From assembly GCA_043228905.1 (NCBI GenBank), contig JBHGNT010000016.1, positions 7,626,001 through 7,690,000 on the forward strand: a stretch of 64,000 nucleotides of DNA, read 5' to 3'. The DNA comes from Azolla caroliniana (taxonomy: Eukaryota > Plantae > Polypodiophyta). Shown here one piece after another: positions 11,254-49,548 of the stretch. Made by a program: the position numbers and the translations under genes. The notes below the pieces were generated by a model. The model saw only the letters and a list, made by a program, of their open reading frames with translations, did not search any database and had not been told where the DNA came from. Each line of letters opens with the position of its first letter. Positions within the stretch are counted from its first letter, which is position 1.

Positions 11254-11307
11254 TGTCAAGACTTGAGAATAGGAGAGAGAAAAATAAGATGACGATAGAA
11301 GGTGTAT

Positions 11308-11338
<31 letters not shown>

Positions 11339-12872
11339 ACTAGAAATGGAAAGAGAGTTCATATTATAAGAGAGCAAGGATTACAAAGAGTAGGTTAAGG
11401 GCCTACAAACTGGTGTTGAACCGAATGAGTTGTGATGAATGAATAGACACTTATTTATAGTGCTTAAATGGAGTATTCTAGAATGTTCTAGAATATTTTA
11501 GAGCTGGTTGTGTACAGCTCCAAAAGTGAAACATGGAAGACCAGGTGAAGATGCATATGAGGGGGAAGATCAAGGCGAAATGCCACATCATTGATCTTAC
11601 CAGATATCACATATGGGCCAAAACATTGATAATCCAATTTGCAGCAAGGTCAGGTTGTTTTAATGCGACCTTGTAAAAGCCATACTCGATCTCCCACTTG
11701 AAATGTAGTCGATGACGGTCGGCAACCTTCTTTTGAGGGTTTTGAGCATCACATAAATGGTGCAAAAGGATATCTTTAACTTCATGGAGTCGGATGAGCC
11801 GATCTTCAGTAGCTGGGTTTGTCAGGAGTTCGGGATGTTCAAGCATAGTCCAACGAGGATGGTACCCAATGTTTGCAAAAAATGGGGAATATCCAATAGA
11901 AGAATGTTCTGAGTTGTTGTAAGCAAATTCCGCCAAATGTAATTGATCAACCCAATCATCTTGTTGATAGTTGACAAAACAACGAAGATATTGTTCTATT
12001 GTTTGGTTGGTGCGCTCACTCTATCCGTTAGTTTCTAGATGGTCGCCGGAAGAGAGTTTGCAAGAAGTGTATAAGAGTTTGAACATGTGCCGCCAAAATT
12101 TTGAGATGAATTGGGGACACCGATCATTGATAATATCATCAGGAAGACCATGATGCCGAAATACCTCTCGCATGAGTAACTCGGTTGTCTCTTGGCTCGT
12201 AATGGCCTTTGTGCAAGGAAGAAAATGTGTCATCTTGGTATAACGATCTACTACCGTGAGAATAGAATCTAAACCCTTGGAAGGTGGTAGATCCGTAATG
12301 AAGTCCAACGAAAAAGATTTCCATGGACTCTTAGGAATAGGCATTAGTTGTAATAAGCCATATGCATGATGTTTAGGTTTTTTGGATCGGCAACATGTAT
12401 CACAACTACGAACATAATCTATAACAAAATGGCGAAGTCGTGGCCACCAATACCTTCGAGAAATTAACTCCAAAGTCTTGTGGATGCCGAAATGTCCAGC
12501 CATTGGTGTGTCATGACATTGTTGCAAGACTTGGAGTCGAGAAGGACCATCAGGCACATATAAGAGATTTTGTCGAAAAAGTAAACCATCATGCCAATTG
12601 AACTGGTTGTAGTCTTGACGAGGATTTTGAGATTGTGAACAAGAAGCACGATCTGGGATAATATGGTTCAAAATGTCTTGGGTGAATTCATTAATCTCAA
12701 TATACTCCCAAATGGAGTCCAGAAGACTTGAATCCCTGGGTGTGTCTATAGCATGAAATGTCATTAGTCGTAGACGGTCAGGACCCAAGAGGATTTGCTT
12801 CTAATTTTCAAATGCGGCCTCTCCTGGATGAAGTTCCATATACGAACACCGAGATAAAGCATCCACTTTTCC

Positions 12873-13279
12873 TTGTTGCATCCCAGGGCGATATAGAATT
12901 ACAAAATCAAAACGAGTTAAGAACTGTGCCCAACGAACTTGTCAACGACTCAAGACTCGAGCACTTTGAAAGTACATTAGATTTTTGTGATCATTATAAA
13001 CAATGATTTGTTGAGACGAACCCTCCAAAAAATGACGCCATTGTTGAAAAGAATCCACAATAGCAAGAAGCTCTTTGTTGCATCCCAGGGCGATATAGAA
13101 TTACAAAATCAAAACGAGTTAAGAACTGTGCCCAACGAACTTGTCAACGACTCAAGACTCGAGCACTTTGAAAGTACGTTAGATTTTTGTGATCATTATA
13201 GACAATGATTTGTTGAGACGAACCCTCCAAAAAATGACGCCATTGTTGAAAAGAATCCACAATAGCAAGAAGCTCTTTG
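12873..13279. repeat. 202-bp tandem duplication within the RNase H region of element B
   Basis: TTGTTGCATCCCAGGGCG... starts at 12873 and again at 13075; TTGT microhomology at the junction. Confidence 0.9.
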
Positions 13280-16072
13280 TCGTGAACCTCATAGTTGATT
13301 TCTATAGCTTTGAATTTCCATGAATGAAAAACCACAGGGTGCAATTGGTCATCATTGCTAATCTGGGATAATACGCTTCCTAGTGCGAAGTCGGATGCAT
13401 CAGCTTCGAGTATAAAGCGCTTCAATGGATCAACATGCATCAAAATCGGTGCAGATGTAAATGCTTGCTATAATCCTTCAAATGCAGAGTTTGCATTTAT
13501 ACTCCAAACAAATAGTCGATTCTTTTGTGTCAGTTGAGTGCGGGGTAATACGATCTTTGAATAATCTTTGATGAACTTGCGATAAAAGTTTGCGAACCCC
13601 AAAAAACATTGTACATCTCGCACAAACTGTGGTGTTTGCCAATCCAAAACTGTTTGAACCTTTGCTAGATCCATAGAGATGCCATGTGAAGAGACTATGT
13701 ACCCCAAAAATTCCACTTGACGCTGGAAACTGCACTTCTCCAATTTTGCATAGAGACCATATTCATGCAACCGTTGCAAAGCTTGTCAAACGTGTATAGC
13801 ATGATCCTCTTGATTTTTTGAGTAGATCAAGATATCATCCATGTAAACTATGACGAAAATATCGAGGAAATCTCGAAAAATGACATTCGCCATATGTTGG
13901 AAAACTGTTGGTGCATTCGTGAGACCAAATGGCATCATTATATACTCAAAGTGGCCATAGCGAGTACGGAAAGCAGTCTTCCATTCATCCCCAGGAAGAA
14001 TTCGAACAAGATTGTAAGCACCTCAAAGATCTAACTTTGTGAAATACTTAGCTCCACTGAGGTGTTCCAGAAGGCTCGAAATCAATGGTAGAGCATATCA
14101 GTTTCGAATAGTTACTTTATTCAATCCTCGATAATCCACGACCAAACGAAGCAAACCATCTTTCTTCTTAACAAAAAATATGGCTGCGCCGGCAGGAGAT
14201 CTTGAATGCTAGATAAACCCATTCGCTAAGTTCTTGTCGATATATTCCCGAAGAACCTCTAATTCCGTGGGCGAAAGGTTATAAATTGGCCCCTATGGAG
14301 GCTCTGTTCCGGGCTGCAAATCAATCGGGCAATCATACGATCGATGCTCTGGTAGTCTATTGGCCTTCACTTATCAAACACATCGGAGAATTCTATATAT
14401 TTCTTCGGTAGTTGGACCCCCGATTCTTGTGAGCTCGATGTGGGAGTTGCTAAAACTGTGAACACCAACATGTCTTCCTTCCGTCCTTCCTCACGTAACT
14501 GATGTATAGAGATTGTCGAAATCTTTTGGAATGTCCTATCCTTTGTTGGAGTTTTAAGAGACTCAGACTGTATTGTGACCTCTTCAATGGTTCTTTTCCT
14601 CCAATCAATAGTTGGGTTATGTAGCTCAAACCATGGAAGACCAAGAACTAGGGAGTGCTCTAGACTACTAATGATGTTGAATGAGATGACACTAGCCAAA
14701 TTGCCTAGGACTACACAAATTGGTTCAGACTCTTCAACTATATCACCTGATGCTATGGGGCATCCATCAATGACTCCGACAGACACTAGGCTTGGGAGCT
14801 TATGCAACTGAATATTATGTATTATAGCAAACTCACGATCCATGAAACAAGAGTTGGCTCTAGATTCTAAGAGGACAGAAGTCGGGACTCGATGACACCT
14901 AGATGTATTAAGCTCAACTTGTGCAGAGAAAACTCAACTAACTTGACCGGATGAAATGGAACCACAACTAGGGATGGACGTTACATGCCTAGGGCTATCC
15001 AACCAAATGGCTCCGATTTTGGCCGGACTTACTCGTTTAACACATCATCTAATTGGCTCAAGACATCAAATGTATTTTTATGACAAGGACTACTAGGCCT
15101 ACTTGGGTTACAAGAAGGGGGAGCAAAAATTGAGATGGGATTGTCATGAAGACTTACTTGGTTAACTTGTCATCGTGGTTTATGTGGACAATTCATAGCA
15201 ATATGCCCTAGACCACCACAATAGAGGCATAGACGATTCGCTCATTGTCATTGCTTTTCAGCATCCGATAATGGTCCTCGACGTCGTGTTGTCTCAATTT
15301 CCATTGGAGTAGGGCCTTCCACCATACTTGGGGTGGAATTGCAACCACTGAAGCATATGTTTCTATTGGTCGAAAGCGTAACATTTGTTGGCACTTAGAA
15401 CGCCACTCAAATAAGCGATTGTCACATCGCATGGACCGGCTTATTGCTTTAATAAGAGATTTTGGATCATCATGGAAGGTAAGAAGTAAATCCTTCACAT
15501 CATTGTGCAAACCTTGACGAAATTGGTCCATTAACACCGCCTTGTCCCATGGAATATCATATGCTAGAAGGCGAAAATCTGTAGCATAAGTGGAAGCAGG
15601 ACGATCTCCTTGTCGTAATCGCAGAATTTTGTTTATTGCGGTTCTCATACTATCGATGTCTCCAAAGTTGGCTTGGAACTCATTAATAAACCCTTCAAAA
15701 TCTTCTAATAATGGTGAGTGCTTCTCAAGGAGTGGTGCAAACCATGCTAATGCGGTACCCGTTAACAAGGTACCAACTAGTCCCACACGAGCAACATCAG
15801 TTGGGTAACTGCTAGGATGCAATTTAATCACAAGCCGTACCTGATTTAAAAATCCACGAAATTGAGACCTTGTACCATCAAACTTGGCCGGCAGACTAAT
15901 CTTGGGTTCCTTCGACAAGGATTGAACTTCCGCCGCTTGTCAATGCAATAGAGTAGTCTCCAATTGATACACCCGTTGAGATAATTCTTCATATTGTTGT
16001 ACTTTCTGTTGGGAGACAGGTCCCTCCGGATGGGAAGGGAGAAGAACAATGCTGATGAACAAACTCGGCCGA

Positions 16073-16285
16073 AACCGGATGACGAGTAGCCGGCTACGGA
16101 GAGCCGGATGGTGTAGACCCGATGAGAACCGGATGAGTACCCGGCTACGGAGAGCCGGATGGTGCAGACCCGGTGAGAACCGGATGAGGAGTGCCCAGCT
16201 ACGGAGAGCTGGATGGTGCAGACCCGGTGAGAACCGGATGAGGAGTGCCCGGCTACGGAGAGCCGGATGGTGCAGACCCGGTGAG
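16073..16285. repeat. About 54-bp CCGG-rich tandem repeat, 4 units, in U3 of the copia LTR
   Basis: AACCGGATGAGGAGTGCCCGGCTACGGAGAGCCGGATGGTGCAGACCCGGTGAG-like units; the same array is at 53532-53760. Confidence 0.9.
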
Positions 16286-16765
16286 GAGTGCTCACCGAAT
16301 GAAGAGACATATTCGTAAATATGTTTTTGAGAATCCATCCTGGCTATATTTGTAAATAGCCGAAAAGTCATATTAGTATAAATATGACTTAGGGCAAACT
16401 TTTAGTTGTAGTTGTTATTCTTGTTGGTGCAAGAAGAGAGGGAGCGCATAACCGTGTATAGAGAGAGAGAGAGAGAGAGAGAGAGGGAACGAGGTCGTTG
16501 CCTCTGTTGAAACCGCCGCCTGTGGCGAAGATCGTGAGCACGAGGTCGTTGCCTCCGTGAACTCACTGTTGTACATTCTAACATAGTGATAGTTTTCAGC
16601 TTGGGGGTTGCCGTGGTTTTTTCCCTAGTTTGGGGTTTTCCACATAAACATCCTGTGTACTCTTCTCTTCTTTGTGTCGTGCATTTATTTCCCGTTTTCT
16701 GTGTATGATTCTAAGCTCGGTTGTGGCCGAGCGTTGCATATAGGGAGCGTGCAGTTCCTGTGAAG

Positions 16766-16777
16766 TGGTATCAGAGC
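16766..16777 (+). other. PBS complementary to initiator tRNA-Met
   Basis: TGGTATCAGAGC, 2 nt after the LTR end. Confidence 0.92.
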
Positions 16778-17318
16778 GAAACGACACAGAAAATGGACGA
16801 ATCGTTGGGCGGCATGTTCAAGCTCACCGGCTCCAACTATTCAGTGTGGAAATCGAAGATGAGGGATATGCTCGTGGTTAAAGATCTTTGGTTGCCGGTT
16901 CAGTTTAGGGACAAGAGACCGGACAAAATCGATGCCACGATATGGGAGGTGATGCACATGAAGACAACGGCGTACATACGGTGCTTCATCGACATGAGCC
17001 TATACAACAACTTCAATGAAGAGAGCAAGGCTCATGATTCTAAGCTCGGTTGTGGCCGAGCGTTGCGTATAGGTAGCGTGCAATTCCTGTCACTTTCTCA
17101 GCACTTACTTGTTGTAGGTCTCCCAACAATCTTTGATTTTCATGCTCCAGTGCCACGAATTTAGTTGTTAGCATGTCGAGCTCGGAGAGAACACGCATAT
17201 ATTCTTGCTTGTTGACGGACTCCATAGTTACAAGAGAAAATTGGTAGATTTACTTGAATAAGGTTAAGATAAGAAGAAGAAGTTGGAGAAGAAGAAAAGA
17301 GAGATATTCGGTTCAAAT

Positions 17319-17368
17319 GGTCGAGACTTGAGAATAGGAGAGAGAAAAAGTAAGATGACGATAGAAGG

Positions 17369-17408
<40 letters not shown>

Positions 17409-17798
17409 ACTAGAAATGGAAAGAGAGTTTATATTATAAGAGAGCAAGGATTACAAAGAGTAGGTTAAGGGGCTACAAACTTGTGTTGAACCGAATGAGT
17501 TATGATGAATGAATAGACACCTATTTATACTCCTTATGGAGTATTCTAGAATGTTCTAGAATATTTTAGATATTTATGATATTTACATTCTAGAATATTT
17601 TAGATATTTATGATATTTAATATAATCATGGAATATCCTAGAATGTTCTAGAATACTCTAAATATCTTGTAATAACTAATAATACATTATTATAACTATA
17701 CATCATATATGTTATTATAATGGTTAAATGTCTAACATATAGATCAAGACGTCTTGGGATCGAATCCTTGTAAGGCCAAAATGTATGTCTTCATGACA
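17319..17798 (-). repeat. 5' LTR of chromovirus B
   Basis: Matches 11254-11500. TATAAAT at 17529-17523 (minus). Bounded by TSD GTGAC. Confidence 0.88.
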
Positions 17799-26182: not shown

Positions 26183-26316
26183 TGTCAGGAACTCTATTAA
26201 GGCAGAGAAGGAATTAGTACTAAAAGAAGGATTAGTACTATTGTTGGGGAATAGTACTAAGACAGAGAAGGATTAGTACTATGAGAGGTGTCGAACTTTT
26301 GAGAGAAGGAATGAGT

Positions 26317-26364
<48 letters not shown>

Positions 26365-26654
26365 TGATGCGAAAGATATATGTATTATATGAAGGAAGAT
26401 ATACAACAGTAGTTAGAAGGCTTAAGACTGGCGTTGAACCGATTTGGTTCGAACTAATGCCTTGCGCCTCCTTTTATAGTGTCTTCAGGAATACTCCTGA
26501 AGTTTCTAGAATGTTCCAGAGAAATCTGGAATATACATCAATTTCCCAATAAAACCTAAATGAAAATAATATCCTTCAAATTACAATTCATAACCTAATG
26601 GTAAAGTCTCGACCCGTGTAACAAAAGGTTATGGGTTCGAGTCTAGTTATGACA
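26183..26654 (-). repeat. 3' LTR of chromovirus I
   Basis: TGTCA...TGACA termini; direct repeat of 31505-31982. Confidence 0.96.
26591..26644 (+). promoter_or_regulatory. tRNA-like Pol III A/B-box module in the LTR (copies at 31919-31972, 49479-49533, 17713-17767)
   Basis: TAACCTAATGG followed 43 nt later (start to start) by GGTTCGAGTC. Confidence 0.6.
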
Positions 26655-29600
26655 CTATCCCCCCTTTAAAACGACGAGTTCCACGAGTCGTTTTGGATTG
26701 AGGACCCGGTTTCTCGGGATATTGTCGATGGAAGTCTTCTAGAAGAGCACGAGCATTGGTCACATTCTCGATCGGTTCCCAAGTACGCTCGCTGGGACTA
26801 TATCCTAGCCAATCGACTAGATAGTAGAGCTTGTTGCGAACAATCTTGGAATCGAGGATGGCAGCGACCTCATACTCAGGTCCATCTTCGAGCTCGATAG
26901 GAGGTGGTGGTTGTATAGTACGTCCTGGGATAGTGCTCTCGTGATAGGGTTCGAGGAGAGAACTATGAAACACCGGATGTATCCGAAGTTGCGGAGGTAG
27001 CTCGAGACGAAAAGCGACATCATTAATCTTCCCGATAATACGGAAAGGACCTAATCGCCGATAATCCAACTTCTCACATGGGCGAGTAGTCTTGATGTGT
27101 CGTCGTAGCAGCCACACCCGATCTCCAATGTTAAAACTGGATGGAAGTCGATGACGATCTGCGTAGTCCTTGTGTGATTGTTGAGCTTGCTGGAGTTGAG
27201 TAGATAAATCCGCTTGTATCTTGCGTAACCGCTCCAAACGATCCTCCGCGCAAGGATTTGTGGACACTTCTGGGGTTTCAAGGACACACCACCGGGGATG
27301 ATATCCCGTATAAGCGTAGAATGGCGTGACTTTAGTCGATGCGTGGATAGCGTTATTATAGGCAAATTCGGCGAACTGAAGAATATCTGCCCAGTCATTC
27401 TGATGATAGTTGAAAAAGCACCGCAGATACTGCTCCAGTGTTTGATTTGTTCGTTCGGCTTGACCGTCGGTTTGTGGGTGGTAGCCGGAGGAGAGGTTAC
27501 AAGTGACCTTCAGCATTTTAAAAAGGTGCTTCCAGAATTTTGACACAAACTGGGGTCCACGATCGCTGATGATATTATCAGGGAGTCCATGATGCCGACA
27601 TACTTCCCGCATGACAATTTCGGCGGTGTCTTCACTAGATATTTCTTTAGTACATGGTAAGAAATGAGCCATCTTCGTATATCGATCCACCACTGTGAGA
27701 ATCGCACTGAATCCCTTAGAGACTGGAAGATCTGTAATGAAGTCAAGAGCAATGGATTGCCATGGCTTGCTTGGAATTGGTAATGGTTCTAATAAACCAT
27801 ATGGATGATGTCTTGGCATTTTCGCTCTGCAGCATGTATCGCAAGTCCGAACAAAATCTTCGACAAATTGTCGCATACGGGGCCACCAGAATGATCGTTG
27901 TACTAAATCTAATGTTTTAGTACTACCAAAATGTCCTGCTGTATATGTGTCATGGCAATTTTGTACTACTCGAAGGCGGCAAGAACCATTAGGAACATAC
28001 AAAAGTTCTTTAAAGAAGAGTAATCCATCACAGTATTTGAATTGCCGATAATCCGTACCTGGTGATTGTGATTGTGAACATGACGCTCGAGAGGGGTCAA
28101 TTTGTGCTAGTATAGCTTGGGCGAAAGCGTCAGTCTTCAAGTCCTCACGTATAGTATTGGTAATGTCGGAATCCACGGGCATGTCAAAGACCTGTGCTGC
28201 TTGCAGTCGTGCTGGACCCAAGATTACTTGCTTCTGGTTATCGAAAGCTGGCTCACCGGGACGTGGTGTTAGATACGAACGCCGTGATAATGCATCTGCC
28301 TTCCCTTGGTGCTTCCCCGGACGATATGTAATTTTGAAGTCGAAGCGTGTGAGGAAGTGGGCCCACCGAGCTTGACGTCGATTCAGTACACGAGCATCTT
28401 GAAAGTAGGCAAGGTTCTTGTGGTCACTGAATACAGTGACCTGATGAGGAGATCCCTCCAGGAAATGCCTCCATTGCATAAAAGAATCAACTATTGCTAA
28501 TAGCTCTTTATCATGAATTTCGTAGTTGATTTCGGCGGCGTCAAACTTACGGGAGTGGAAAGCCACAGGATGTAGCTTCTCGTCGTTACCCTGTTGTGAT
28601 AGAATGCTCCCTAATGCGAAATCCGATGCGTCAGCTTCGATAATGAATGGTTTTTCCGGATCCACATGACCTAAAATTGGAGCTGATGTAAACGCCTTCT
28701 TAAGACTCTCGAAAGCCATGTCCGTCTCTTTAGACCAAATGAATGATTGTCCCTTCCTGGTGAGCTGTGTGAGAGGCAGCACAATTTTTGAGTAATTTTG
28801 TATGAACTTCCGGTAAAAATTTGCAAAGCCTAGGAAGCATTGCACATCCCGCACCGAACGCGGAGTGTGCCATTCTATCACCGTTTTCACCTTGGCTGGG
28901 TCCATAGATATGCCTTCTGAGGAGATGACATAGCCGAGAAATTCCACTTGGTTGCACCTGAAACTACATTTCTCTAACTTTGCATACAGACCATGTTCTC
29001 GAAGTCGTTTTAGTACTAATAGTACATGAGAATCATGTTCTTCTTGGGTCTTTGAATAAACCAGTAGATCATCCAAATAGATGATCAAAAAATCATCCAA
29101 GAGATCTCGAAATATATCATTCGCCATGTGCTGGAAGACTGCCGGCGCATTAGTGAGTCCGAACGGCATGATCGTATACTCGAAGTGCCCATATCTGGTG
29201 CGAAACGCGGTCTTCCATTCATCTCCTGGTCGGATCCGTACGAGGTTATAGGCTCCTCGTAAGTCGATCTTCGTGAAGAACCTGGCACCGTTGATCCGTT
29301 CTAAAAGACTTGAGATAAGGGGAAGAGCATACCTATTTCTTACTGTGACCTTATTCAAGCCACGGTAATCTACAACGAGTCGAAGCGAGCCATCTTTTTT
29401 CTTGACGAAGAAAATGGGTGCACCGGCTGGAGATTTCGAATGCCGAATGAAACCGTTCTCCAAATTCTCCTCTATATAGGCTCGGAGGACTTCTAGCTCG
29501 GTTGGTGACAAATTGTAGATCGGCCCCCATGGCGGCTCTTTTCCCAGTTGTAAGTCGATGGCGCAATCGTACGGCCGATGATGAGGAAGTGTGTTGGCTT

Positions 29601-30234
29601 GTACTTTATCGAACACATCAGCATACTGACGATACTTCTCGGGAAGTTGAACGGTGGACTCCTCTTTGGTGGTGCTGGAGGGTTGTACTGATATTGCGAA
29701 GAGAAACATTTCCTCCTTGCGCCCTTCCTCACGCAACTGATGTAGCGAAATGGTTGCAACCTTCTGGGTAGATCCTTGGGTTTGTCGCAACCGGATTTCC
29801 CTTGTCCTCCAATCTATGTCTGGGTTATGTAACTCGAACCATGGTAATCCTAAAACTATGGGATGTTCTGGAATACTAATAATATTAAATGATACTACAC
29901 ATGTTAAGTTATCTAGGACAATATTAATGGGTTCCGACTCTTCTATGATATTACCAGAAGCAATGGGACGACCATCAATGACTACTACTGAGGCTGGACA
30001 TGGGAGCTTTCTAAGAGATATCTGATGAGCTCGGGCAAAATTCCTATCCATGAAGCAAGAATTAGCTCCGGAATCTAGAAGGGCTAAGGTATGTACTGGA
30101 GGGGTACTTTTAGTACTAACTGCTACTTGGGCTACGAACACATCACTAACTTGCTTAGAGGGAATGGAACCACTAATGGGCTGCACAGATCTAGGGCTGT
30201 CCAACCAAACGGCTCCTATTTTGGCTGGACTTAG
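26647..30234 (-). CDS. pol: Pol: protease, RT, RNase H, integrase, chromodomain; probably entered by -1 frameshift
   Basis: LLDSGA, IYLDD, EADASD, integrase HHCC and DDE motifs, GPF, and chromodomain YEVAAILD...YLVDWLGY...TWEP. No ATG at the ORF start. Confidence 0.93.
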   Translation of the reverse strand, partial: LSPAKIGAVWLDSPRSVQPISGSIPSKQVSDVFVAQVAVSTKSTPPVHTLALLDSGANSCFMDRNFARAHQISLRKLPCPASVVVIDGRPIASGNIIEESEPINIVLDNLTCVVSFNIISIPEHPIVLGLPWFELHNPDIDWRTREIRLRQTQGSTQKVATISLHQLREEGRKEEMFLFAISVQPSSTTKEESTVQLPEKYRQYADVFDKVQANTLPHHRPYDCAIDLQLGKEPPWGPIYNLSPTELEVLRAYIEENLENGFIRHSKSPAGAPIFFVKKKDGSLRLVVDYRGLNKVTVRNRYALPLISSLLERINGARFFTKIDLRGAYNLVRIRPGDEWKTAFRTRYGHFEYTIMPFGLTNAPAVFQHMANDIFRDLLDDFLIIYLDDLLVYSKTQEEHDSHVLLVLKRLREHGLYAKLEKCSFRCNQVEFLGYVISSEGISMDPAKVKTVIEWHTPRSVRDVQCFLGFANFYRKFIQNYSKIVLPLTQLTRKGQSFIWSKETDMAFESLKKAFTSAPILGHVDPEKPFIIEADASDFALGSILSQQGNDEKLHPVAFHSRKFDAAEINYEIHDKELLAIVDSFMQWRHFLEGSPHQVTVFSDHKNLAYFQDARVLNRRQARWAHFLTRFDFKITYRPGKHQGKADALSRRSYLTPRPGEPAFDNQKQVILGPARLQAAQVFDMPVDSDITNTIREDLKTDAFAQAILAQIDPSRASCSQSQSPGTDYRQFKYCDGLLFFKELLYVPNGSCRLRVVQNCHDTYTAGHFGSTKTLDLVQRSFWWPRMRQFVEDFVRTCDTCCRAKMPRHHPYGLLEPLPIPSKPWQSIALDFITDLPVSKGFSAILTVVDRYTKMAHFLPCTKEISSEDTAEIVMREVCRHHGLPDNIISDRGPQFVSKFWKHLFKMLKVTCNLSSGYHPQTDGQAERTNQTLEQYLRCFFNYHQNDWADILQFAEFAYNNAIHASTKVTPFYAYTGYHPRWCVLETPEVSTNPCAEDRLERLRKIQADLSTQLQQAQQSHKDYADRHRLPSSFNIGDRVWLLRRHIKTTRPCEKLDYRRLGPFRIIGKINDVAFRLELPPQLRIHPVFHSSLLEPYHESTIPGRTIQPPPPIELEDGPEYEVAAILDSKIVRNKLYYLVDWLGYSPSERTWEPIENVTNARALLEDFHRQYPEKPGPQSKTTRGTRRFKGGIVS

Positions 30235-31400
30235 TCGTTTAACTCTTCTTCTAATTGGCTAAGGACATCAAATTTGTTTGCGAGATTCGGACTATTAGTA
30301 CTATTAGGACTATTATGACTATGAGGACTATCAGAGATTCCTACTGAAATAGACTCGGGTTTAGTATAGTCAGAACTAACAACGACTTGGTTTACCTGCC
30401 TTCTTGGTCTATGGGGACAGTTTATCGCGATATGCCCTGGTCCACCGCAATAAAGGCATAATCGGTTTGTTCGGCGTCGTTGCTTTTCCTCCTCCGATAG
30501 CGGCCCACGACGACGTGTAGTGTCAATTTCCATTGGAGTTGGAGTACTTACTGGAGGCGCATTATGTGACTCCCTTTGAAAAGGTTTTGCTACCACTGAG
30601 GCATAGGTAGGCTCGGATCTTGCCCTCGGCATCTGAAATTGTCGTTCCGAACGTCGCTCGAAGAGGCGGTTGTCACATCTGACCGCTCGACTGATTGCTT
30701 CTGTTAATGATTTTGGCTCTTCAGGGAAAGTCAAGAGTAAATCCTTGACATCGTTGCGTAGACCATAGCGGAACTGCTCCATCAATGCTTGATCATCCCA
30801 GGGGATATCGGCGGCGAGTAGGCGGAAATCTGCAGCATATGCGGAGGCTGGACGGTCACCTTGGCGTAATCGCCGGATTTTGTTGATTGCAGTCCTTATG
30901 CTGTCAGTATCTCCAAAACATGCTTTAAACTCACTTATGAATTCTTCAAAATTATTTAGTACTGGAGATTCCTTTTCTAGTAGCGGAGCGAACCATGCTA
31001 ATGCTGAGCCATTTAACAACGTGCCTACTAAACCCACTCGTGATGCATCGGTGGGATATCGGGATGGATGCATTTGAATAACTAACCGTACCTGGTTAAG
31101 AAACCCTCTAAACTGCGATCGCGTTCCATCGAACTTCGTGGGAAGGCCAATCTTGGGTTCTTTATGAATCCCTTGTGCTCCGTGCCCTTGTTGTTGCAGT
31201 GCTACGATGGTTGCTTCGAGTTGTTGCACGCGTAACGCAAGTTCCCCATGCTGTTGTTGCGTTTGCTGCTTTTCTAAGGAAATTTGCTGAAGATCCCCCA
31301 ACAAGCGTTGATTTTCTTGTTCCAAAGCATGAAACTTCTCTTTCAAGCATTGAAATTCCGAGAAAACGGATTGATACTCTTCAGCGCTAACGGTGGCCAT
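30231..31400 (-). CDS. gag: Gag (coiled coil, capsid, CCHC knuckle)
   Basis: 389 aa starting at ATG; PTKFDG, LRQGDRPASAY, CLYCGGPGHIAINC. Confidence 0.93.
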   Translation of the reverse strand: MATVSAEEYQSVFSEFQCLKEKFHALEQENQRLLGDLQQISLEKQQTQQQHGELALRVQQLEATIVALQQQGHGAQGIHKEPKIGLPTKFDGTRSQFRGFLNQVRLVIQMHPSRYPTDASRVGLVGTLLNGSALAWFAPLLEKESPVLNNFEEFISEFKACFGDTDSIRTAINKIRRLRQGDRPASAYAADFRLLAADIPWDDQALMEQFRYGLRNDVKDLLLTFPEEPKSLTEAISRAVRCDNRLFERRSERQFQMPRARSEPTYASVVAKPFQRESHNAPPVSTPTPMEIDTTRRRGPLSEEEKQRRRTNRLCLYCGGPGHIAINCPHRPRRQVNQVVVSSDYTKPESISVGISDSPHSHNSPNSTNSPNLANKFDVLSQLEEELND

Positions 31401-31490
31401 GGGATGAAGGAAAAGGGAAATAAGAGACTAGTAGGAAAGGAGGGAGACAGAAGGAAGAGGGAGAGAAAAGACCAGACAGGCACCGAGGAA

Positions 31491-31502
31491 AAATCGGTTC
31501 AA
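31491..31502 (-). other. Non-tRNA PBS complementary to the predicted transcript 5' end (self-priming)
   Basis: Sense TTGAACCGATTT lies 2 nt after the LTR and is the exact complement of sense AAATCGGTTCAA at 31773-31762, which starts 33 nt after TATAAAA. Confidence 0.85.
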
Positions 31503-31504
31503 AC

Positions 31505-31638
31505 TGTCAGGAACTCTATTAAGGCAGAGAAGGAATTAGTACTAAAAGAAGGATTAGTACTATTGTTGGGGAATAGTACTAAGACAGAGAAGGATTAGTA
31601 CTATGAGAGGTGTCGAACTTTTGAGAGAAGGAATGAGT

Positions 31639-31692
<54 letters not shown>

Positions 31693-31982
31693 TGATGCGA
31701 AAGATATATGTATTATATGAAGGAAGATATACAACAGTAGTTAGAAGGCTTAAGACTGGCGTTGAACCGATTTGGTTCGAACTAATGCCTTGCGCCTCCT
31801 TTTATAGTGTCTTCAGGAATACTCCTGAAGTTTCTAGAATGTTCCAGAGAAATCTGGAATATACATCAATTTCCCAATAAAACCTAAATGAAAATAATAT
31901 CCTTCAAATTACAATTCATAACCTAATGGTAAAGTCTTGACCCGTGTAACAAAAGGTTATGGGTTCGAGTCTAGTTATGACA
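31505..31982 (-). repeat. 5' LTR of chromovirus I
   Basis: Direct repeat of 26183-26654; TATAAAA at 31806-31800 (minus). Confidence 0.96.
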
Positions 31983-33447: not shown

Positions 33448-33459
33448 GCTCTGATACCA
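33448..33459 (-). other. PBS complementary to initiator tRNA-Met (copia H)
   Basis: Minus strand TGGTATCAGAGC abutting the LTR. Confidence 0.93.
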
Positions 33460-35504: not shown

Positions 35505-36208
35505 TGTCGTAGTGTATTCCACACACTACGTGAAAACCATAAAATAATATATCCGATTTTAGATACATATAAATAAATAAATAATATATCAAAACATTTA
35601 TCACGTGCATGGAGAATGACTCGAACCCTGCACCTCCACGTAGATAAACCCCAACTTTACCATTGTATTAACTTATCTTTAGTGTTATATATATAGATTT
35701 AATACGTATAAGACCTTTATTTACACATACCTTTATTAAAAGATAAAAATCATGTATTCTTTAGGGTGTGAATATTTTATTTACACGTGACATTAAAAGT
35801 GACTCATGCACATCTAGCGTGCATGAGCCCTATACTTAGGAAATGACAAAGCATCACATGCACATTTAGTGTGCATGGACACTTTAGGCGAAAAAGCATG
35901 AAGCCATGCTTAGCCTCTTCCATCTTTATATAAGGAGGAGAGAAATATGTATAAGGTTGTTGATTAATATACAAGGATTGATCAATCTAATATATTCGTG
36001 GGATTCACGAATTTTGCCATCTAAATTACTCTTATAATCTAAATATTGTTTTAAATACACTAAACTCGTGGGATTCACAAGATTGCTATCTTACTTCTCT
36101 TTCTACTATTCATAACTAGCCTTAAGTTGTATTCCTCTTCCTCCTAGTCCAAAACCTCGGCGGTTCCCACCCGACTCACGCAATGATCTGGAGCCGAAAG
36201 GCACGACA
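35505..36208 (+). repeat. 5' LTR of element J
   Basis: TGTCGT...ACGACA; repeat of 41861-42564. Confidence 0.95.
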
Positions 36209-36212
36209 CAGT

Positions 36213-36230
36213 TGATGAACCCGACGTGAA
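36213..36230 (+). other. PBS for tRNA-Trp with one G>A change
   Basis: TGATGAACCCGACGTGAA versus TGGTGAACCCGACGTGAA at 43679, the complement of the plant cytosolic tRNA-Trp 3' end as I recall it (TTCACGTCGGGTTCACCA). Confidence 0.8.
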
Positions 36231-36246
36231 GACGGGTGGCAAGGAG

Positions 36247-38289
36247 ATGGAAAATCAACCGGAGGCTAGCAACATGATGATGATGTTCGAGCGCATGCTA
36301 CAAGAACAACGCATGATGTCGGAGATAGCGGCATCAGTGGAGTGACTCGTGCAACGAAACGGGCAATTCAACGGGAAAGACGTGTCGCGGTATCTTCGGG
36401 ACTACAAGGCGGAGATGCTACGGTGCGGAATATCGGAAGGACTGCAAGTGACGTCCTTCAACCGGGTGGCGACCGACGGGCTTCAAGCAAGCATCCATGG
36501 GCTACGACAGGAAAATCCGACATGGGAGGCGTTTGAAGTAGAGCTAAAGAGGACGTTCGCCATCGAGGATTCCTCCAAGGCGACGCGAAGGGAATTCGAA
36601 GATTGGGTGGAGACGCCGGACAAGGGATTGAAGGTCGTTGATGTGTTTTCGGCATTCGAAATCCGGTTCGGGAGGTTGTCCGCGAGAGATCAAGCTATCC
36701 TCGTACCGGACAAGGTGATCATGTTCTTGCGAGCCGTGGACGTCCGGGACCGGAAAGATCTCGGAGTGCTCTTGGAGGACACGACCACGGAGAGTGGCCT
36801 CACCGAAACATGGGAAAGCGTGCAGGATATCGTCGCACGATACACGAAGAGGGGGCAATGGCTTGCCAACGAGGAAAAGAGGGTTTCGGAACCGATTCCA
36901 AAACCGAGAACCGGATTGGAAGACCATCCACCGAGGGCTCGGGAGACTACAACCGAGAAGGGGATTGATGCATCTACGGTGGAGCAACTATTGAAGGAGA
37001 TGGAGAATCTGAAGATCGCGATAGTGAAGAAGTCGGATGATCGCCCCACAAACTCCAAGTATACGGACCGACGGTGCATATGGTGCGATAGCGCCGAACA
37101 CGATCGGAGGGATTGCGACAAGCATAAGGAGGCGCTACGGCGAGATCTCATCTACTACGAGGGAAACCGGATTCATTCGATGGACTCTCGGAAGCCACTC
37201 CGACCGAACTTCCGGAAAGGCGGCATGAAGAAGGTGCTTGAGGAGGAATTGGCAGCAAGAAGCAACTATGCGACAACCGCGGGAATATGTGTCGGGGAGT
37301 CATCGAGAGCAAAGACGTCTTTTTGGTCAGAAGTTCTAGAAAACACCGAGAAAACCGACTCCAACGAGATCCGAAGCACCGCGGAAGGCGTTCGGGAAGC
37401 TACGGGATGGGAGTGCCCTGTCGACAAGAATAGCGTATACGCCCTATGTCAATTGCATAAGGTGTATGTGGACGAGAAACGACGACGCACGGAGGATGCG
37501 GCCAGGCCATCAAAGATACCGGAAAGCTGGAACTTCGGAGGTAAGGGAAAAGAAAAGGTGACTCCGGCATTCAAGCTTGCCTCGGACATAGAACAACAAA
37601 CCGACTTGAAAAGAGTGTTCGAGGAAAGAATCTTGGATAGCCGGGTAGTTTTCTCGCTTCGGGAGCTACTCGGAATAGCAAAGAAGGAGTTCCACGATCT
37701 TCTCGTGGATCTCGTGAAGCGAAAAAGACAAAGTACGGAGGAAAATGCTCCAAGGGTGAATGCGAACACCGTTTTAATGAACGACGTCGAAGTGGAGGAC
37801 GAAATTCCGAACTCCCACTATACAAGGCCACATTGGGCACGCGCGACTACGGAGACTCCGGTCCGAATCGGCAACATCAAAGAACCCGTGCTAGCATTGA
37901 TTGATCACGGATCGGAGATCAACTTGATGTCCAAGGAGTTCTACCGGAAGGGGAAGTGGCCTATTAACACCAACCATGGATGGAAGATTCGGGCGACCAC
38001 CAAAGCAACGGAAGATCTATTTGCGGCTTGTCCGGATGTGACGGTGAAGATCGGGGATGTCGAGATCGACCAAAATTTCTTCGTACAAGATGAGATTTCA
38101 CATTCCGTCATCCTCGGCCAACCCTTTATCACGGCATCACGGATGGAGACGAAGGTGCTTGATAGCGGTGCAGCTTTTGCGCGAATTCGGAGCCAAAACG
38201 GTGGGAAATCCATCCAATTCCTAACGGTGCTGGCAAATCACGAAAGGAACAAGAGGGAACTCTTGTCCCAAGTGAGAATGGATTTTTAA
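36247..38289 (+). pseudogene. gag-protease ORF of J, with a premature TGA at 36343
   Basis: ATG at 36247 is in frame with ORF 36349; CIWCDSAEHDRRDC knuckle; LIDHGSEIN protease. Confidence 0.88.
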
Positions 38290-41200
38290 AGAGGACTGTT
38301 GCGGAGTGGGGAAGTGATAGTCCGAGAAGCCCTGATACCCCACACAGGAAGAAAACTCTCGGAGCAAAACATGTACGAATCGGTCCGGATGGGGCATCTA
38401 CGTACACGACCGTAACCGGAGGATTGAAGAAAGGATACTGACAAGTGGAGGATAAGTTGCGGTCGGCATCAATAATAAAAGAAGATGAAGAAATCGTGGG
38501 GATAGTCGAAGAAGTGTTCTATGGGAGCATGCTACAATGACTTGAAGAGCTTGCGGAAGATAAAAGCCAAGGGAACCGGGTAGTCCCGGTGGAATCGGTC
38601 GAGATGTACGAGATCATTGCGAAAATGGAGTCGGATACGCTCCGCAAAGAAGAAGCAATGGTAAGTATGAAATACAAGACCGTGGAGAAGAAGGTGAAAC
38701 CGGCCGCGGGACCGCTACCTGCCGATAGCGAACAAAAGAGGAAAGAAGTCTCGGGAGATCCGACACTTCGGAAGTCCGTGGATATCGGACATGCCTTCAC
38801 GGATGAGACCCGGAAGAAACTTCGGATCGGTGGAGGTGGGTTCCTATTACAAAAAGAAGAAGAACGGTTTCGCGAGATGTTGGAGCAACACGGCAAAGCG
38901 TTTGCATTTACATCAAGGGAGATAGGGTGCGTCGATCCGAGAATGGTGGAGCCGATGGTGATCTTCACGATTGACCATGTACCGTGGAACCTGAAGCCGA
39001 TTCCGGTGCCGCGAGCGCATATTCCGAAAGTCATTGACTTGCTCAAGGAGAAGGTGGCGATGGGGATTCTAGAGCCATCAACTGCTCCGTACTCAAATCG
39101 ATGGTTTACGGTTCCGAAGAAGAATGGGTCACTCCGATTCATCCAAGACTTGCAACCGGTGAATAAGGTCACGATCCGGAACTCGGGAGTCGGTCCGATA
39201 GTGGACGAATTTGCGGAAGCTTTTGCCGGTCGTGCGATATACTCCATCGGAGACCTATACTCGGGGTATGACCAATTCCAACTAGCCGTGGAGAGCCGAG
39301 ACATCACAACCATGCGAACACCGATAGGATTAGTCCGAATGTGCACACTACCACAAGGAGCGACAAACTCAGTTGCTCATATGATGAACGCGATGAACAA
39401 GGTGCTTCGAGACTGCATTCCGGAGATAACGATGCCGTTCCTCGATGACATTCCGATGAAAGGATGCATGGTAGAAGAAAAAGATGAGACTATGGATGAT
39501 CGGGGATGCCGAAAGTTCGTGGTCGACCATATTCATGATTGCGAGAAAGTGTTGCGAAAGCTAGAAGATGTGCACCTAACACTTTCCGGGGAGAAATCGG
39601 CATTCGGGCAAGAAGAAATATTGGTGGTCGGACATCTATGTGGGCCCTACGGCCGAAGACCGTCACCAACAAAGATCGATGTGATTCAAGCTATGGAGGA
39701 AGTATGCGAGTCAACATCCGAAGTCCGAAGGTTTCTCGGTGCATGTGCATTCTATCACATCTGGATTCCAAACTATGCACATATAGCAGACCCGCTCTAC
39801 CACTTGTTGCGGAAAGGTAAGAAATTCGAATGGAAACCGGAACACACCAAAGCCATGAAGAAATTGAAGAAGACACTTCGGAGGGCGGAAGCACTTAAGA
39901 AGCCGAGCTACGACCGACCGATCATAGTAACGGTTGATATAAGTCCAACCGGTATCGGGTGGGTCATCAATCAAGCCGACTCGGATGGTTCGCGGTATCC
40001 GATCCGATTCGGAGCAAAGGTTCTCAACGAAAGGCAACGTGGTTATGCACAAGTCAAAAGAGAATTGTGGGGAGTCGTGTCGGCGATAAAATCGGATCCA
40101 GATTATTTGATCGGAGCCAAAGTGGTGATCGAGACGGATTGTCTTCCGATACTCGGGATGATGCGGTGTTGTACGATACCGGATGTAGCTATGGTAAGGT
40201 GGGTTGCATATGTCAAGTCGCTTAATCCGGAGGTTCGACACATCTCGGGGAAGGACAACGCGGTAGCGAATATGTTATCAAGGGCTCGGTTCGGAGATGA
40301 CATAACCGAATCGGATAATGAAGAAGTTTCCGAAGACTACTTCGCGTCGGAGCACATATGCCGAGTGAACGTAATCCGAGAATTCCGGGAAGAAGAATAC
40401 GAGGGAGAAAGCTTGATGATCGGAAAGATGTTACAAGAGGTCGAGGATTCAACAAACGATAAAGGAAGAAGTGCCGAGATCCGAAGGAAGAAGAGGCAAG
40501 TCCAAAAGTTCTTCTTGGAAAACGGATTAATATGGAGGGCGCCGAAAAGACCGGATGGTATACCACTTCGAGTAGTCGGGACCAAAGAGCAACGAAACCG
40601 GATAATGTCTGAGTTTCACGAATCCGATTGGGCTGGACACCGAAGAACATGGGCAACATTTGTGAAGATCAAGCAAAAATATTGGTGGAAGAAAATGTAC
40701 AAAGATGTTGCGGAGTTCACGGAAAGCTGCGAGAAATGTCAAGTCTACTCCGGGGTTCGACATCGAGATGAGTTACATCCGACATTCTCACCAACAATCA
40801 ACTTCAAGTGGATGGTCGACATAGTGGCCATGCCGACCGGGATCAGACAAAAGAAATACTTGGTATTAGCTCGGGTAGAAGGTCGAGCGCTTCAGAGGAA
40901 AACGTGTTCCGCGGTATGCCAATTTCTTTTGGAGGAAGTATTTTGCAGGTACGGGTGTGTAGGACAAGTGATTGTGGACCGGGGAGAACTCGACTCGGAC
41001 AAAGCTAGGGGATTCTTCGCCAAACACGGAGTTCGGTTATCGCTGACAACGGCATACAATCTGGAGGCCAACGGGAAAATCGAACGAGGACATAGTCCAA
41101 TCATGAAAGCACTTGCAAAGGCATGCGATGGAAAGGTGAAGGACTGGCCGCAGATGCTTCCGTATGCACTATGGGCGGATCGGACGACGCATAGCTCAGT

Positions 41201-41903
41201 AACCGGTTACATGCCGGCAGAACTCATGACCGGACAAGCACCGGTAATGCCGACGGAAACCGCGATCACAACATGGACAGTGCTATCGTGGAAGGAAGAG
41301 ATGAGCCGGGAAGAACTACTAGCGGTCCGGATACGACAACTAGAGGGAAGACCGGCAGACATAGCGGAAGCAATACGTCGACAACAAGAAGCACGGTTCC
41401 GGAACAAAAGTCGGTTCGACACAAAGCACCGACTACGACCGAGGAGGATTGAAGAAGGAGATTGGGTGATCGTCTATGACAGTAGTTTGGACCATCAACA
41501 TACAACGATGCGGAAATTCGCGAAAAGGTGGTTCGGGCCATACGAGGTTCGGAAAGTCTTCGACAACGGAACGTACCGACTGTCCGAGTTGGATGGAACA
41601 ATACTACGAGTGCCTATAGCTGGGAAGCGGGTGAAGATTTTCAAGAAGCGGACCGACGACAAACCCTATGTGATCCAAGCCAAGGCCGACAACGAGGAGC
41701 AATCGGACGAAGACCACGATGATGCGGGAAGCGAAGAAAGTGAATTACAACTCATAGTCAACATAAGGGGAGAATCGGAGGAAGCTTTGGGTGAAGACGG
41801 ATATGAGGAATCGAGAACTTCGGCACATACCGGAAGATGTGCGGGTTCGGAGGGGGCGAGTGTCGTAGTGTATTCCACACACTACGTGAAAACCATAAAA
41901 TAA
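38286..41903 (+). pseudogene. pol of J (RT, RNase H, integrase) in the -1 frame; two TGA stops near the start, then 1104 open codons
   Basis: DLYSGYDQ, LPQG, FLDD; FHESDWAGH...CEKC; WFGPY; no chromodomain. Stops at 38439 and 38538. Confidence 0.88.
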
Positions 41904-42564: not shown

Positions 42565-43053
42565 ACGTACTCCCCGCCACCTACAAACGGGATTTTGAAA
42601 CCATAATTGACACGCGTTTTTTCCCCACTTACATAAGCTTTAGTCGAAACCCCCGTTCTCCCTTTGCCGGCCACAACACCTGCACCTGGCTCACCGGCCC
42701 CAAGAAAGATTTCTTCACAACAACTGACCAACTGCAGGAAATCCGGCTACCATCATTGAACATCCACCGTCTTTGCCATCATCTCCGCCGCCACCCGCCC
42801 CCCGAAGAACCCCCCTAATGAATCCTACTCGCCCCTGACGCCCGAAGCTCCCCTCCCATAGTGCACCCAAGAGTGTGCACTCATTGGGTTGGGGGGGATG
42901 TTAAGCGCTTGGATAATAACACAACCAGTCACGAATAAGAGCGCTGTCGTAGTGTATTTTGTACACTACGTGAAAAACGTATATAGTATTAGATTCAATA
43001 AAAAATGAAGAAATAGAAGAAAATAGCAAAATAAATGGAACATGCATAGGGCA

Positions 43054-45734: not shown

Positions 45735-46938
45735 GTGTCGTAGTGTATTTTGTACACTACGTGAAAAACGTATATAGTATTAGATTCAATAAAAAATGAA
45801 GAAATAGAAGAAAATAGCAAAATAAATGGAACATGCATAGGGCAAGATTCGAACCTTGCACCTCCATGTTAATAATGTAATGTCTTACCATTACACTAGC
45901 ATTTCATTAGTGTTAAAGCATAGATGTCCCACATAGAAAGGTAAATTCACGCTAGGATAAACATTAGAAAAACGCATAACAAAAGAAAAAGCTACACATA
46001 CACATCTAGCGTGCATGATAAAAAACGCACAAGTTAGAAAAAAGCATGATCACTTTAGATAAAGCATATAGTCTATCTATAGGAAAAGCATGGGGTCTAT
46101 AGTTAGAGAAAAAGCATGGATTACTAAAGACTTCCTCATCACTACATAAGGATGGGGAGCACAATGTAATTGTGTGTGAAAAATATTTGGAAACTAGATA
46201 TGTTTCTAAAAAACACCAATTAATAAACTATACTCGTGGGATTCACGAGAATTCTATATCATTCTCTTTCAACCGAAGTTTATATTCTTATATTCATATT
46301 GATTAATCTAATACAATACACTCGTGGGATTCACGAGTTTGCTATAACTCTTTCTTACAACATATTTATATTCTTATTAGCCTTAAAACTCTCCTCTTCC
46401 TAGTCCAAAACCCCAGCGGTTCCCACCCGACTCACGCAAACGATCCGGAGCCGAAAGGCACGACAGCGCATCAACAAGGACGTAGTACAAAGAGGAAACG
46501 GCAAGAGGAAAAGAACGCAAAGAGACGTTCAAGTGGGAAAGGCCCATACCCTAAACATGAAAGCTATATAAACCACATAGTAGTGGCTTTGTGGGGGCTC
46601 TCCCATTTGTAATGATCTCCTATTGATTAGAGCTAGAGCTTCCTCTCCTCCTTCTTGTAACCTTTTAACATAAGAGAGATTAGTGAGGTGTTTAGTTAGA
46701 GAACACTAATCTCTCTCCTTATTGGTGTCTTAATCTATTAACCTATTGTCTATGAGAGAGAGCTTGAGAGAGTGAGAGAGATATCGTGCTCAATCATTTA
46801 CTAATCATTAAGTGAGTGTGAGGCTTGGAGGTATCCGACAACCATCTCCGCCCGATTCGCCATCAAGAGGGTATACGCCAGTTTGAATCCCGCCACGACA
46901 TCGAGGAGCTTACTCCATCGATGCATAGATCCTTAACA

Positions 46939-49548
46939 ATCTTTGTGAAGAACCTTGCACCATTGATCCATTCTAAAAGACTTGAGATAAGGGGAAATGC
47001 ATAGCTATTCTTGATGGTGACCTTATTCAAGCCACAGTAATCTATGACGAGACGAAGTGATCCATCCTTTTTCTTGACGATGAAAATGGGTGCGCCGGCT
47101 GGAGATTTCGAATGTCAAATGAAACCATTTGCCAAATTCTCCTCTATATAGGCTCGAAGGACTTCTAGCTCGGTTGGTGACAAATTGTAGATCGGTCCCC
47201 CCGGTGGCTCTTTTCCCGGTTGTAAATCGATGGGGCAATCATACGGTCAATGGTGAGGAAGCGTATTGGCTTGTACTTTATCGAACACATCGGCATAATG
47301 ACGATACTTCTCTAGAAGTTGAACGGTGGACTCCTCTTTAGTGGTGTTGGAGGGTTTTACTAATACTGCGAAGAGAAACATTTCTTCCTTGCGTCCTTCC
47401 TCACGCAACTGATGTAGCGAAATGGTTGCAATCTTATGAGTAAATCTTTGGGTTTGTCGATACTGGATTTCTCTTGTTCTCCAATCTATGTCTGGGTTAT
47501 GTAATTTGAACCATGGTAATCCCAAAACAATGGGATGTTCTGGGATACTAATTATATTAAAGGATACTACACATGCTAAATTATCTAGAACGATATTAAC
47601 GGGCTCTGACTCTTCTATGATATTTTCGGAAGCAATGGGACGACCATCAATGACTACTACAGAGGCTGGACACGAGAGTTTTCTTAGGGATATCTGATGA
47701 GCTTGGGCAAAATTCCTATCCATGAAGCAAGAATTAGCTCTGGAATCTAGGAGTGTTGAGACATGTACTGGAGAGGTACTTTTAGTATTAACGGTTACTT
47801 GGGCTAAGAACACATTGCTAACTTGCTTAGAGGGAATGGATAGATCTAGGGTTGTCCAACCAAAGGCTCCTATTTTGATTGGACTTAGTCGTTTAACTCT
47901 TCTTCTAATTGACTAAGGACATCAAATTTGTTCAATAGATTTGGGCTATTAGGACTATTGGGACTATCAAATATTCCTACTAAAATAGACTCGGATTTAG
48001 TAGAATTAGAACTAGCAACTATTTGGTTCACCTATCTTCTTGGCCTATGGGGACAGTTCACTTCAATATGCCCTAGTCCACTGCAATAAAGACATAGTCG
48101 ATTTGCTCGGCATCACTGCTTTTCTTCTTCCGATAATGGTCCACGACGACATGTAGTGTCAATTTCCATCGGAGTTGGAGTATTCACTAGAGACACATTA
48201 TATGACTCCCTTGGAAAAGGTTTTGCTAACACTGAGGTGTAGGTGGGCTCTGATCTTGCCCTTTGCATCTAGAACTGACATTCTGAACATCGTTCGAAAA
48301 GACGGTTGTCGCATCTCAGCACGCGACTGATTGCTTCTATCAATGACTTTGGTTCTTCAGGGAAGGTCAAGAGTAAATCCTTGACATCGTTACGTAGACC
48401 ATTACGAAATTGCTCCATAAGTGCTTGGTCATCCTAGGGGATATCGAAGGCAAGTAGGCAGAAATCTGCACCGTATGCGGAGGCTGGACGATCACCTTGA
48501 CGTAATCGTCGGATTTTGTTGATTGTTGTCCTTATGTTGTCAGTATCTCCAAAACAGGCTTTAAACTCACTTAAAAACTCTTCAAAATTGTTTAGTAAAG
48601 GAGATTCCTTTTCTAACAACGGAGCGAACCATGCCAAAGCTGAGCCACTTAACAACGTGCCTACTAAACCCACTCGTGATGCATCATTGGGATATCAGGA
48701 AGGATGCATTTGAATGACTAATCGTACCTAATTAAGGAATTCTCTAAATTGTGATTGTGTTCCATCGAATTTCATGGGAAGGTCGGTCTTGGGTTCTTTA
48801 TGAACCCCTTGCGTACTGGGTCCTTGTTGTTCCATTGTTGCTATGGTTGCTTCGAGCTGTTGCACACGTAACGCAAGTTCCCCGTGTTGTTGTTGCGTCT
48901 GCTGCTTCTCTAAGGAGATTTGTTGAAGCTCCCCCAACAGTCGTTGATTTTCATGTTCCAAGGCGAGAAACTTCTCTTTCAAGCATTGCAACTCTGAAAA
49001 AACTGATTGATATTCTTGAGCGCTAACAGTGGCTATAGTATGAGAGAAAAAAGGAAGAAGAGATTAGTATGAAGGGAGGGAGAAGTAAGAAGATAAAGGA
49101 AGAGAAGGAAGGAGACAAAATCGGTTCAAACTGTCAGGAGCAGTACTAAGACAGAGAAGGAATTAGTACTAAAAGATGAGGATTAGTACTAAGGGAGGTG
49201 TAGAACTCTCAAGAGAAGGAAAGAGTGAGTGTGTGAGAGAGAGAGAGAGAATGATGATAACAAAAGATATATATTCTGTTAAGAGAATATACAATAGTAG
49301 ATAGGAGACTTAAGACTGGCATTGAACCGATTTGGTTCGAAATAATGCCGTGTGCCTCCTTTTATAGTGTTCTCAAGAGTACTCCTGAAGTTTCTAGAAT
49401 GTTCCAAAGAAATCTGAAATATACATCAATTTTTTATAGTAAAACTTAAATGAAAATAATATATTTTGTATTACAACATAGTCTAATGGTCAAGAGCTCG
49501 ACTCATGTAACATAAAGTCATGGGTTCGAGTCTTGCCATATCATGACA
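46939..49548 (-). mobile_element. Chromovirus C, 5' half (RT start, protease, gag pseudogene, 5' LTR 49132-49548)
   Basis: Colinear with 29268-31982; the LTR is homologous to that of element I. Confidence 0.9.

Follow-up and report, generated by a model that had tools for sequence, protein, structure and literature searches.

The window analysed here, a 64,000-nt stretch of the genome of the fern Azolla caroliniana, contains three related LTR retrotransposons, termed I, B and C, which raise the question of how their reverse transcription is primed, since none of them has a PBS that starts with TGG, as the preliminary description had pointed out. We found that the site in question is an 11-12 nt complement of the element's own LTR. 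Tf1-like priming by the element's own RNA is the likely explanation, and the bases that follow the PBS likely record runoff of reverse transcriptase at the 5' end of the primer; we give this reading a probability of about 0.8. Self-priming has been established experimentally in fission yeast, while in plants it has been predicted from one complementary match. The covariation and the length-following junction described below provide independent support for plant self-priming, together with an exact predicted start base (31773).

Retrotransposons of the window

Element I, a young Tcn1-like chromovirus of 5.8 kb, is full-length (26183..31982, 5,800 bp; all features of I, B and C given here and below lie on the minus strand), is flanked by the TSD CTAGG and is nested in a copia element. 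Its 5' LTR (31505..31982, 478 bp, TG...CA) and 3' LTR (26183..26654, 472 bp) differ by 1 substitution and by 6 nt in a (TC)n tract. The gag frame (30231..31400) overlaps, at positions 30231-30258, the pol frame (26647..30258), in which we found PR, RT, an RNase H domain, IN and a chromodomain (about 26725-26874; PF00385 at aa 1129-1178, E 4e-14). Judged by eye, the chromodomain has Y, W and Y at what we take to be the positions of the aromatic cage. Within single I copies (window 31620-31700; L091-L150) one LTR is usually longer than the other by an even number of bases that can reach about 28, with 0-2 substitutions per same-copy pair, and the length difference of the window copy sits in the (TC)n tract.

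Element B (11254..17798, TSD GTCAC) is a degenerate relative in which gag holds an insertion and the 3' part a deletion; it is devoid of the chromodomain, the PPT and a part of the 3' U3. Of element C only the 5' half is present (46938..49548), comprising the LTR (49548-49132), gag, PR and the start of RT, inside which it ends abruptly, so that the chromodomain is missing. Element I thus possesses the only chromodomain within the window. All three elements had been described as chromoviruses; for I this is borne out by the chromodomain, whereas B and C are so called because of their RT identity (78%; 87% over 102 aa) and, in the case of B, because of its position in the tree. Element B, with its GTCAC duplication, has inserted into a fourth chromovirus fragment (17810-19673 and 11150-11251, minus strand), whose pol is 84% identical to that of I, and divides it in two. 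The sole host gene among 12 frames scanned is a FAE1-type ketoacyl-CoA synthase frame (61596-63368, plus strand).

In an RT tree (25 rows, 251 columns) the elements group with fungal and vertebrate Tf1/sushi-type RTs, with a support of 100/99. A plant-only grouping with Tanacetum and Closterium was rejected (p-AU 0.026). Among the 120 matches listed there was no named Tcn1 reference sequence. Most likely the elements are members of Tcn1 and work like Tf1.

The predicted primer and the PBS covary across five lineages

I, B and C each contain an 11-12-mer, starting at a C|A step, to which the site located 2 nt past the LTR is exactly complementary. In element I, the PBS TTGAACCGATTT (31491..31502, 12 nt) is separated by a GT spacer (31503..31504) from the LTR end at 31505 and is exactly complementary to AAATCGGTTCAA, the predicted self-primer, which would constitute the first 12 nt of R (31762..31773) and begins 33 nt from the first T (31806) of the TATA box TATAAAA (31800..31806). 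Both the PBS and the spacer are invariant in 90/90 I copies. The same arrangement is found in element C (primer 49322..49333, 12 nt, 33 nt from the TATA at 49366-49360; PBS 49118..49129, 12 nt) and in element B (primer 17486..17496, 11 nt, 33 nt from the TATA at 17529-17523; PBS 17306..17316, 11 nt). The positions previously given for these six stretches all proved correct, and so did the distance of 33 nt from the first T of the TATA box (31806, 49366 and 17529). The compensatory change reported for B is also real, being a swap of A-T to T-A, with pairing that extends over 11 rather than 12 nt.

To look beyond the window we used a blind rule that names no primer sequence: an 11-mer located 28-38 nt after a TATA must have a complement, with at most one mismatch, just after a CA. 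Applied to 110 Ty3-capsid loci of the genome (from 150 scored), the rule fired in 80, whereas the number for each of five shuffles was 0-5 out of 110; the match of primer and PBS therefore exceeds chance. The preliminary description had proposed an analysis of covariation over genomic copies; when carried out, it showed that the pair covaries across five lineages of the RT tree, each with its own primer and a matching PBS. The primers are AAATCGGTTCAA in the lineage of I and C, AAATTGGTTCAA in E, AATTCGAATCAA in D, ATTCGGTTCAA in B, and ATTCCGGTTCAA in F, which is represented by two copies. They are 12 nt long in four lineages and 11 nt in one, and start at TATA+33 in four lineages and at TATA+32 in D.

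The differences amount to about five compensatory events, namely the A-T swap, a C-G pair turned into T-A, two neighbouring changes in D, and a change or insertion in F. It is these events, and not the individual copies, that constitute the evidence of covariation, because the copies are kin. The C-G to T-A change could have started as CpG decay. Five loci (L194, L195, L227, L075 and L085) combine an E-type primer with an I-type PBS, which leaves a G-U pair; they are possibly intermediates, recombinants or products of CpG decay.

We also tallied base pairs over the 135 of 155 loci that could be anchored, with anchors overlapping primer positions 1-7 and PBS positions 1-4, and with one mis-anchored row (L250) included. 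Counted from the 3' end of the primer, positions 1-12 form Watson-Crick pairs in 113-134 of the 135 copies; positions 8-12, which did not serve as anchors, do so in 115, 133, 124, 129 and 113 copies, respectively. Past the primer, pairing drops to 14/135 at position 13 and 18/135 at position 14. The distance of TATA+32/33, the C|A initiator, the edge of pairing and the edge of the variable junction described below coincide. For element I, the TATA spacing and the two edges suggest an RNA start at 31773, at the C|A initiator.

In all five lineages the LTR ends with CA and is followed by GT before the PBS (window 31503-31505); with this spacer the cDNA end would have two extra bases for the integrase to remove. 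Four lineages also retain the bases following the primer, CACCAGT or CGCCAGT, for which weak pairing with the LTR end is possible.

Predicted RNA structure

The minimum-energy structures of I, B and C contain all primer pairs (z = -5.7, -2.3 and -6.4, respectively). The primer/PBS duplex was also predicted in 15/15 further copies, so this central duplex is present in 18/18 folds in total, most of which contain in addition a hairpin or a short extension on the U5 side. The Tf1 RNA has been assigned a three-duplex ("pretzel") structure (PMC10085805), whose leader-to-LTR duplex is absent from all 18 predicted folds. The Azolla elements thus differ from the Tf1/sushi group in that no leader-side duplex is predicted and in that the primer is 12 nt long except in one lineage, where it has 11. 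A hairpin that spans the start site, formed by GAACC and GGTTC, occurs in I and C and is absent from B.

Comparison with host tRNAs

Four of the five primers carry at their end a word that resembles the tRNA T-arm, GGTTCAA, and tRNA-Thr(GGU) and tRNA-Gln(UUG) contain a 10-nt internal match to the primer of I. Moreover, half-tRNA priming is known in copia lineages (PMC6317226). One could therefore argue that the primer is a fragment of a host tRNA cleaved within the T-loop, and that the complement in the LTR is a secondary structural element. The comparison with tRNAs speaks against it. No primer is matched in full by any of 80 tRNA sequences, which represent 16 types; the best candidates have 2 mismatches, and the CCA ends match at no more than 7 of 12 positions. 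The primer of D lacks the T-arm word, and its best run in a tRNA is 6 nt. A search with the primer-in-T-arm pattern gave 399 matches, and the 30 examined included no tRNA, most of them being LTRs. Finally, each of the five PBS variants follows its own LTR, and the bases past nt 12 are random rather than a fixed continuation of a tRNA. We consider priming by such a fragment very improbable.

The tRNA set was obtained by running ARAGORN on fetched loci (80 distinct genes of 16 types), and the Rfam search covered 63 of about 58,700 candidates. The comparison of the PBS with host tRNAs suggested in the preliminary description has therefore yielded no full match within a partial set, which missed the primer of the copia element, its positive control. 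Matches to the 3' end of tRNA-Trp form two clusters, 13 at G000:C8:17796786-17823371, spaced mostly by about 1.2 kb, and 18 at C16:4989495-5105657, which are likely tandem arrays of tRNA genes.

A hypervariable junction follows the PBS

The copies of element I reveal a second feature, located directly downstream of the PBS (31485..31490 in the window, corresponding to PBS+1 to +3 in copies of modal length; the window copy exceeds its leader class by 3 nt). Among 90 young I copies, picked by gag protein identity from 150 scored, PBS+1 is T in 48, C in 35 and G in 7, and never A. Diversity at PBS+1 and +2 is 0.57-0.70, as compared to 0.002 in gag, i.e. these bases are about 300 times more diverse, and the 8-mers past the PBS are of 50 distinct kinds, as compared to at most 4 in any gag window. 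Leaders of 88 nt (34 copies) and 101 nt (18 copies) dominate, and among copies of equal leader length positions +4 to +10 do not vary at all, all variation being at +1 to +3.

The junction differs in 50 of 57 pairs of nearest neighbours, and in 47 of 51 pairs that are within 10 differences over 4.7 kb; on the tree of the coding region, positions +1, +2 and +3 require 21, 20 and 19 changes, respectively, whereas none of the 104 informative coding columns requires more than 4. In the set of 60 full-length copies, 4 had no 3' anchor and 2 more had no resolved LTR pair; all 54 remaining copies have a 5-bp TSD and 0-2 LTR substitutions, and hence are recent products of integrase. No comparable variation was found at the PPT edge of the I copies, or at the predicted cut site in R, where 86 of 87 copies are identical. 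Three I-family gag copies (L058-L060; G000:C22:1977509, 1983302 and 1989095) are spaced by 5,793 bp, about one whole element, and their post-PBS bases are common to two and different in the third.

Neutral drift, or assembly error beside a run of T, could in principle generate such a pattern irrespective of priming, given that the leader is non-coding and pyrimidine-rich, and that the (TC)n tracts of the LTRs are of unequal length within a copy as well. However, the changes are mostly substitutions between C, G and T confined to a sharp 3-nt window and absent from the PBS and from +4 to +10; diversity over the final 35 nt of this leader is 0.007; the 54 LTR pairs contain 0-2 substitutions; and the onset of variation shifts with primer length across families. 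We attach hardly any weight to this explanation. The post-PBS bases are likely a scar left by reverse transcriptase copying to the end of its own primer.

The position of the junction follows the length of the predicted primer

Variation begins at nt 12 in B, and rises at nt 13 in C-like copies, E, I and older I-like copies, as counted from the start of the PBS. In the lineage of element B it takes the form of a few haplotypes. Two elements of the window with tRNA-type PBSs, in neither of which a scar had been anticipated, served as controls outside the system. In the non-chromovirus gypsy (35505-42564, plus strand), the PBS (36213..36230) is an 18-nt match to tRNA-Trp; a related element at 42945-46465 has the same tRNA-Trp(CCA) PBS. 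All 30 loci of this gypsy were usable, and variation begins at nt 19. Its junction (L371-L400, 30 copies) is of 10 types, with a diversity of 0.48, as compared to 0.018 in gag. Position 19 is where plus-strand synthesis is known to stop, at a modified base of the tRNA. The copia element that hosts element I has a TGG-type PBS (33448..33459, minus strand), which we take to be of the initiator-Met type. It shows no peak of variation past the PBS in 27 usable copies (of 30 loci, 2 without an anchor and 1 mis-anchored were dropped).

Thus, we rejected the notion that the scar is specific to self-priming, and, because the tRNA-primed gypsy has one as well, the scar alone is no proof of self-priming. 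The onset of variation nevertheless tracks the primer length (11, 12 and 18 nt), so the variable zone likely marks the end of the plus-strand strong-stop DNA, which in the self-complementary elements would coincide exactly with the border of the stretch complementary to the LTR.

Lineage D (L232, L238, L255-L290) is almost devoid of base variation after the PBS: 30 of 32 copies have C, followed by a (TC)n tract of variable length. The distance from the PBS to the next fixed motif ranges from 13 to 101 nt, in odd steps, in the 27 of 32 copies in which it was measurable. The tract could have arisen by ordinary slippage or could have grown by tailing by reverse transcriptase.

A model of self-priming and of the origin of the scar

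Taken together, the covariation in five lineages, the dominant predicted fold, the grouping of the RTs with Tf1/sushi and the onset of variation at the end of the duplex make self-priming the best reading for these elements, with the start site and the RNase H cut being predicted, and they support the earlier proposal that reverse transcription proceeds without a host tRNA. According to this reading, Pol II would start 32-33 nt after the TATA, and the 5'-terminal 11-12 nt of the RNA, whose complement is evident in the sequence, would fold back onto the PBS as in the predicted structures. By analogy to Tf1, RNase H would cut after nt 11-12, and RT would extend the primer through the GT spacer into U5. 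The plus-strand strong-stop DNA would then copy the retained primer up to its 5' end, where RT would add 1-3 bases: T by slippage on the terminal run of A, C opposite the cap, or untemplated bases. At the second strand transfer the copies of the PBS would anneal, and the mismatched tail would be extended mostly in register, so that PBS+1 to +3, whose variation is observed, would be rewritten at most cycles while the length of the leader is usually kept. Copying at this step would also write changes of the primer into the PBS, which may help to explain the covariation.

The scar could have a different origin even if self-priming is true. Read as the minus strand, PBS+1 is A in 48, G in 35, C in 7 and T in 0 copies, so the absence of A on the plus strand fits equally well with purine additions on the minus strand, i.e. 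with minus-strand synthesis that stalls at the capped primer and makes purine tails there, the two strands then being joined via 2-nt overhangs (RT clamp) or by end-joining of the host. The Tf1 RT possesses clamp and template-independent activities in vitro (PMC3035444). Scatter of the start site, which would write templated bases, is another source to consider: after the PBS, 2 of 90 I copies and 5 of 135 others have GGT, which complements the three bases preceding the predicted start. A point to set against our model is that minus-strand additions might be expected at the predicted cut site in R, which is free of any scar. However, end-joining should alter the length in most cycles, yet leaders of modal length prevail (88 nt in 34 copies, 101 nt in 18), and start-site scatter covers only the G-first minority of 7/90. 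We regard these origins of the scar as unlikely, and prefer plus-strand tails extended in register, because the leader length is usually kept. As a generalization, it seems to us slightly more probable than its opposite that Ty3/gypsy elements rewrite 2-3 post-PBS bases at nearly every transposition, with RT tailing the plus-strand strong-stop DNA and extending the mismatch; the same tailing may make the (TC)n tract of lineage D grow past the PBS.

If this is true, the length of the primer that was copied, here 11, 12 or 18 nt, could be read from genomic copies alone, self-priming families could have their RNA start mapped without RNA data, each insertion would be naturally barcoded, and the many families for which self-priming has been predicted could be put to a sequence-only test. 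Should the scar hold in other families, it would offer a cheap test of the priming mode and a per-insertion tag for bursts of near-identical copies.

Relationship to known and predicted self-priming elements

The suspicion that self-priming had already been predicted for the Tcn1 clade is correct: Neumann et al. (2019) predicted it for 83% of 1,500 Tcn1 elements (PMC6317226). The REXdb criteria given there for Tcn1 are a 5-bp TSD, a length of 5.5-9.4 kb and a gag that overlaps pol, and the Azolla elements resemble Tcn1 in the chromodomain integrase (element I), the 5-bp TSD, the length of 5.8 kb, the gag overlapping pol, and a stretch of 10 nt or more in the LTR that is complementary to a site lying 0-5 nt past it. 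The clade is further characterised by moss or club-moss hosts. As far as the Tcn1 part of that paper goes, the prediction rests on a blastn complement, and neither a position of the start site nor covariation between lineages nor a variable junction is given. Novikova et al. (2010) state that the priming signal was not found in SM-Tcn1 (PMC2864245), and PMC7466625 does not mention the PBS or priming. What is new beyond the known prediction is the five-lineage covariation and the post-PBS scar, of which we found no printed description in a search of the open-licence literature.

The complementarity of the RNA 5' end to the PBS is shared with Tf1/Tf2 of Schizosaccharomyces pombe, Tj1, Tosmo1-3 and Tcry1 (PMC7175516, PMC11042837, PMC10085805, PMC4600332, PMC5341516). 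In S. pombe, the 11-nt own-RNA primer of Tf1 and its cut (PMC7175516) have been shown by experiment, whereas in Azolla self-priming is predicted from sequence. About half of the Tf1 cDNA keeps a single-stranded copy of the PBS, and most 3' ends have nontemplated bases (PMC11042837); the clamp and template-independent activities of the Tf1 RT are also treated in PMC3185545. A fixed genomic scar after the PBS, as found here, is not described for the Tf1/sushi group in the available text of these sources. In MLV, vector assays revealed deletions between the PBS and downstream sequence, which are raised by RT mutations (PMC3185545). The two systems are alike in that changes are anchored at the 3' edge of the PBS and are ascribed to RT at the second strand transfer; unlike the MLV deletions, the changes in the Azolla elements are mostly length-neutral substitutions and occur in nearly every natural copy.
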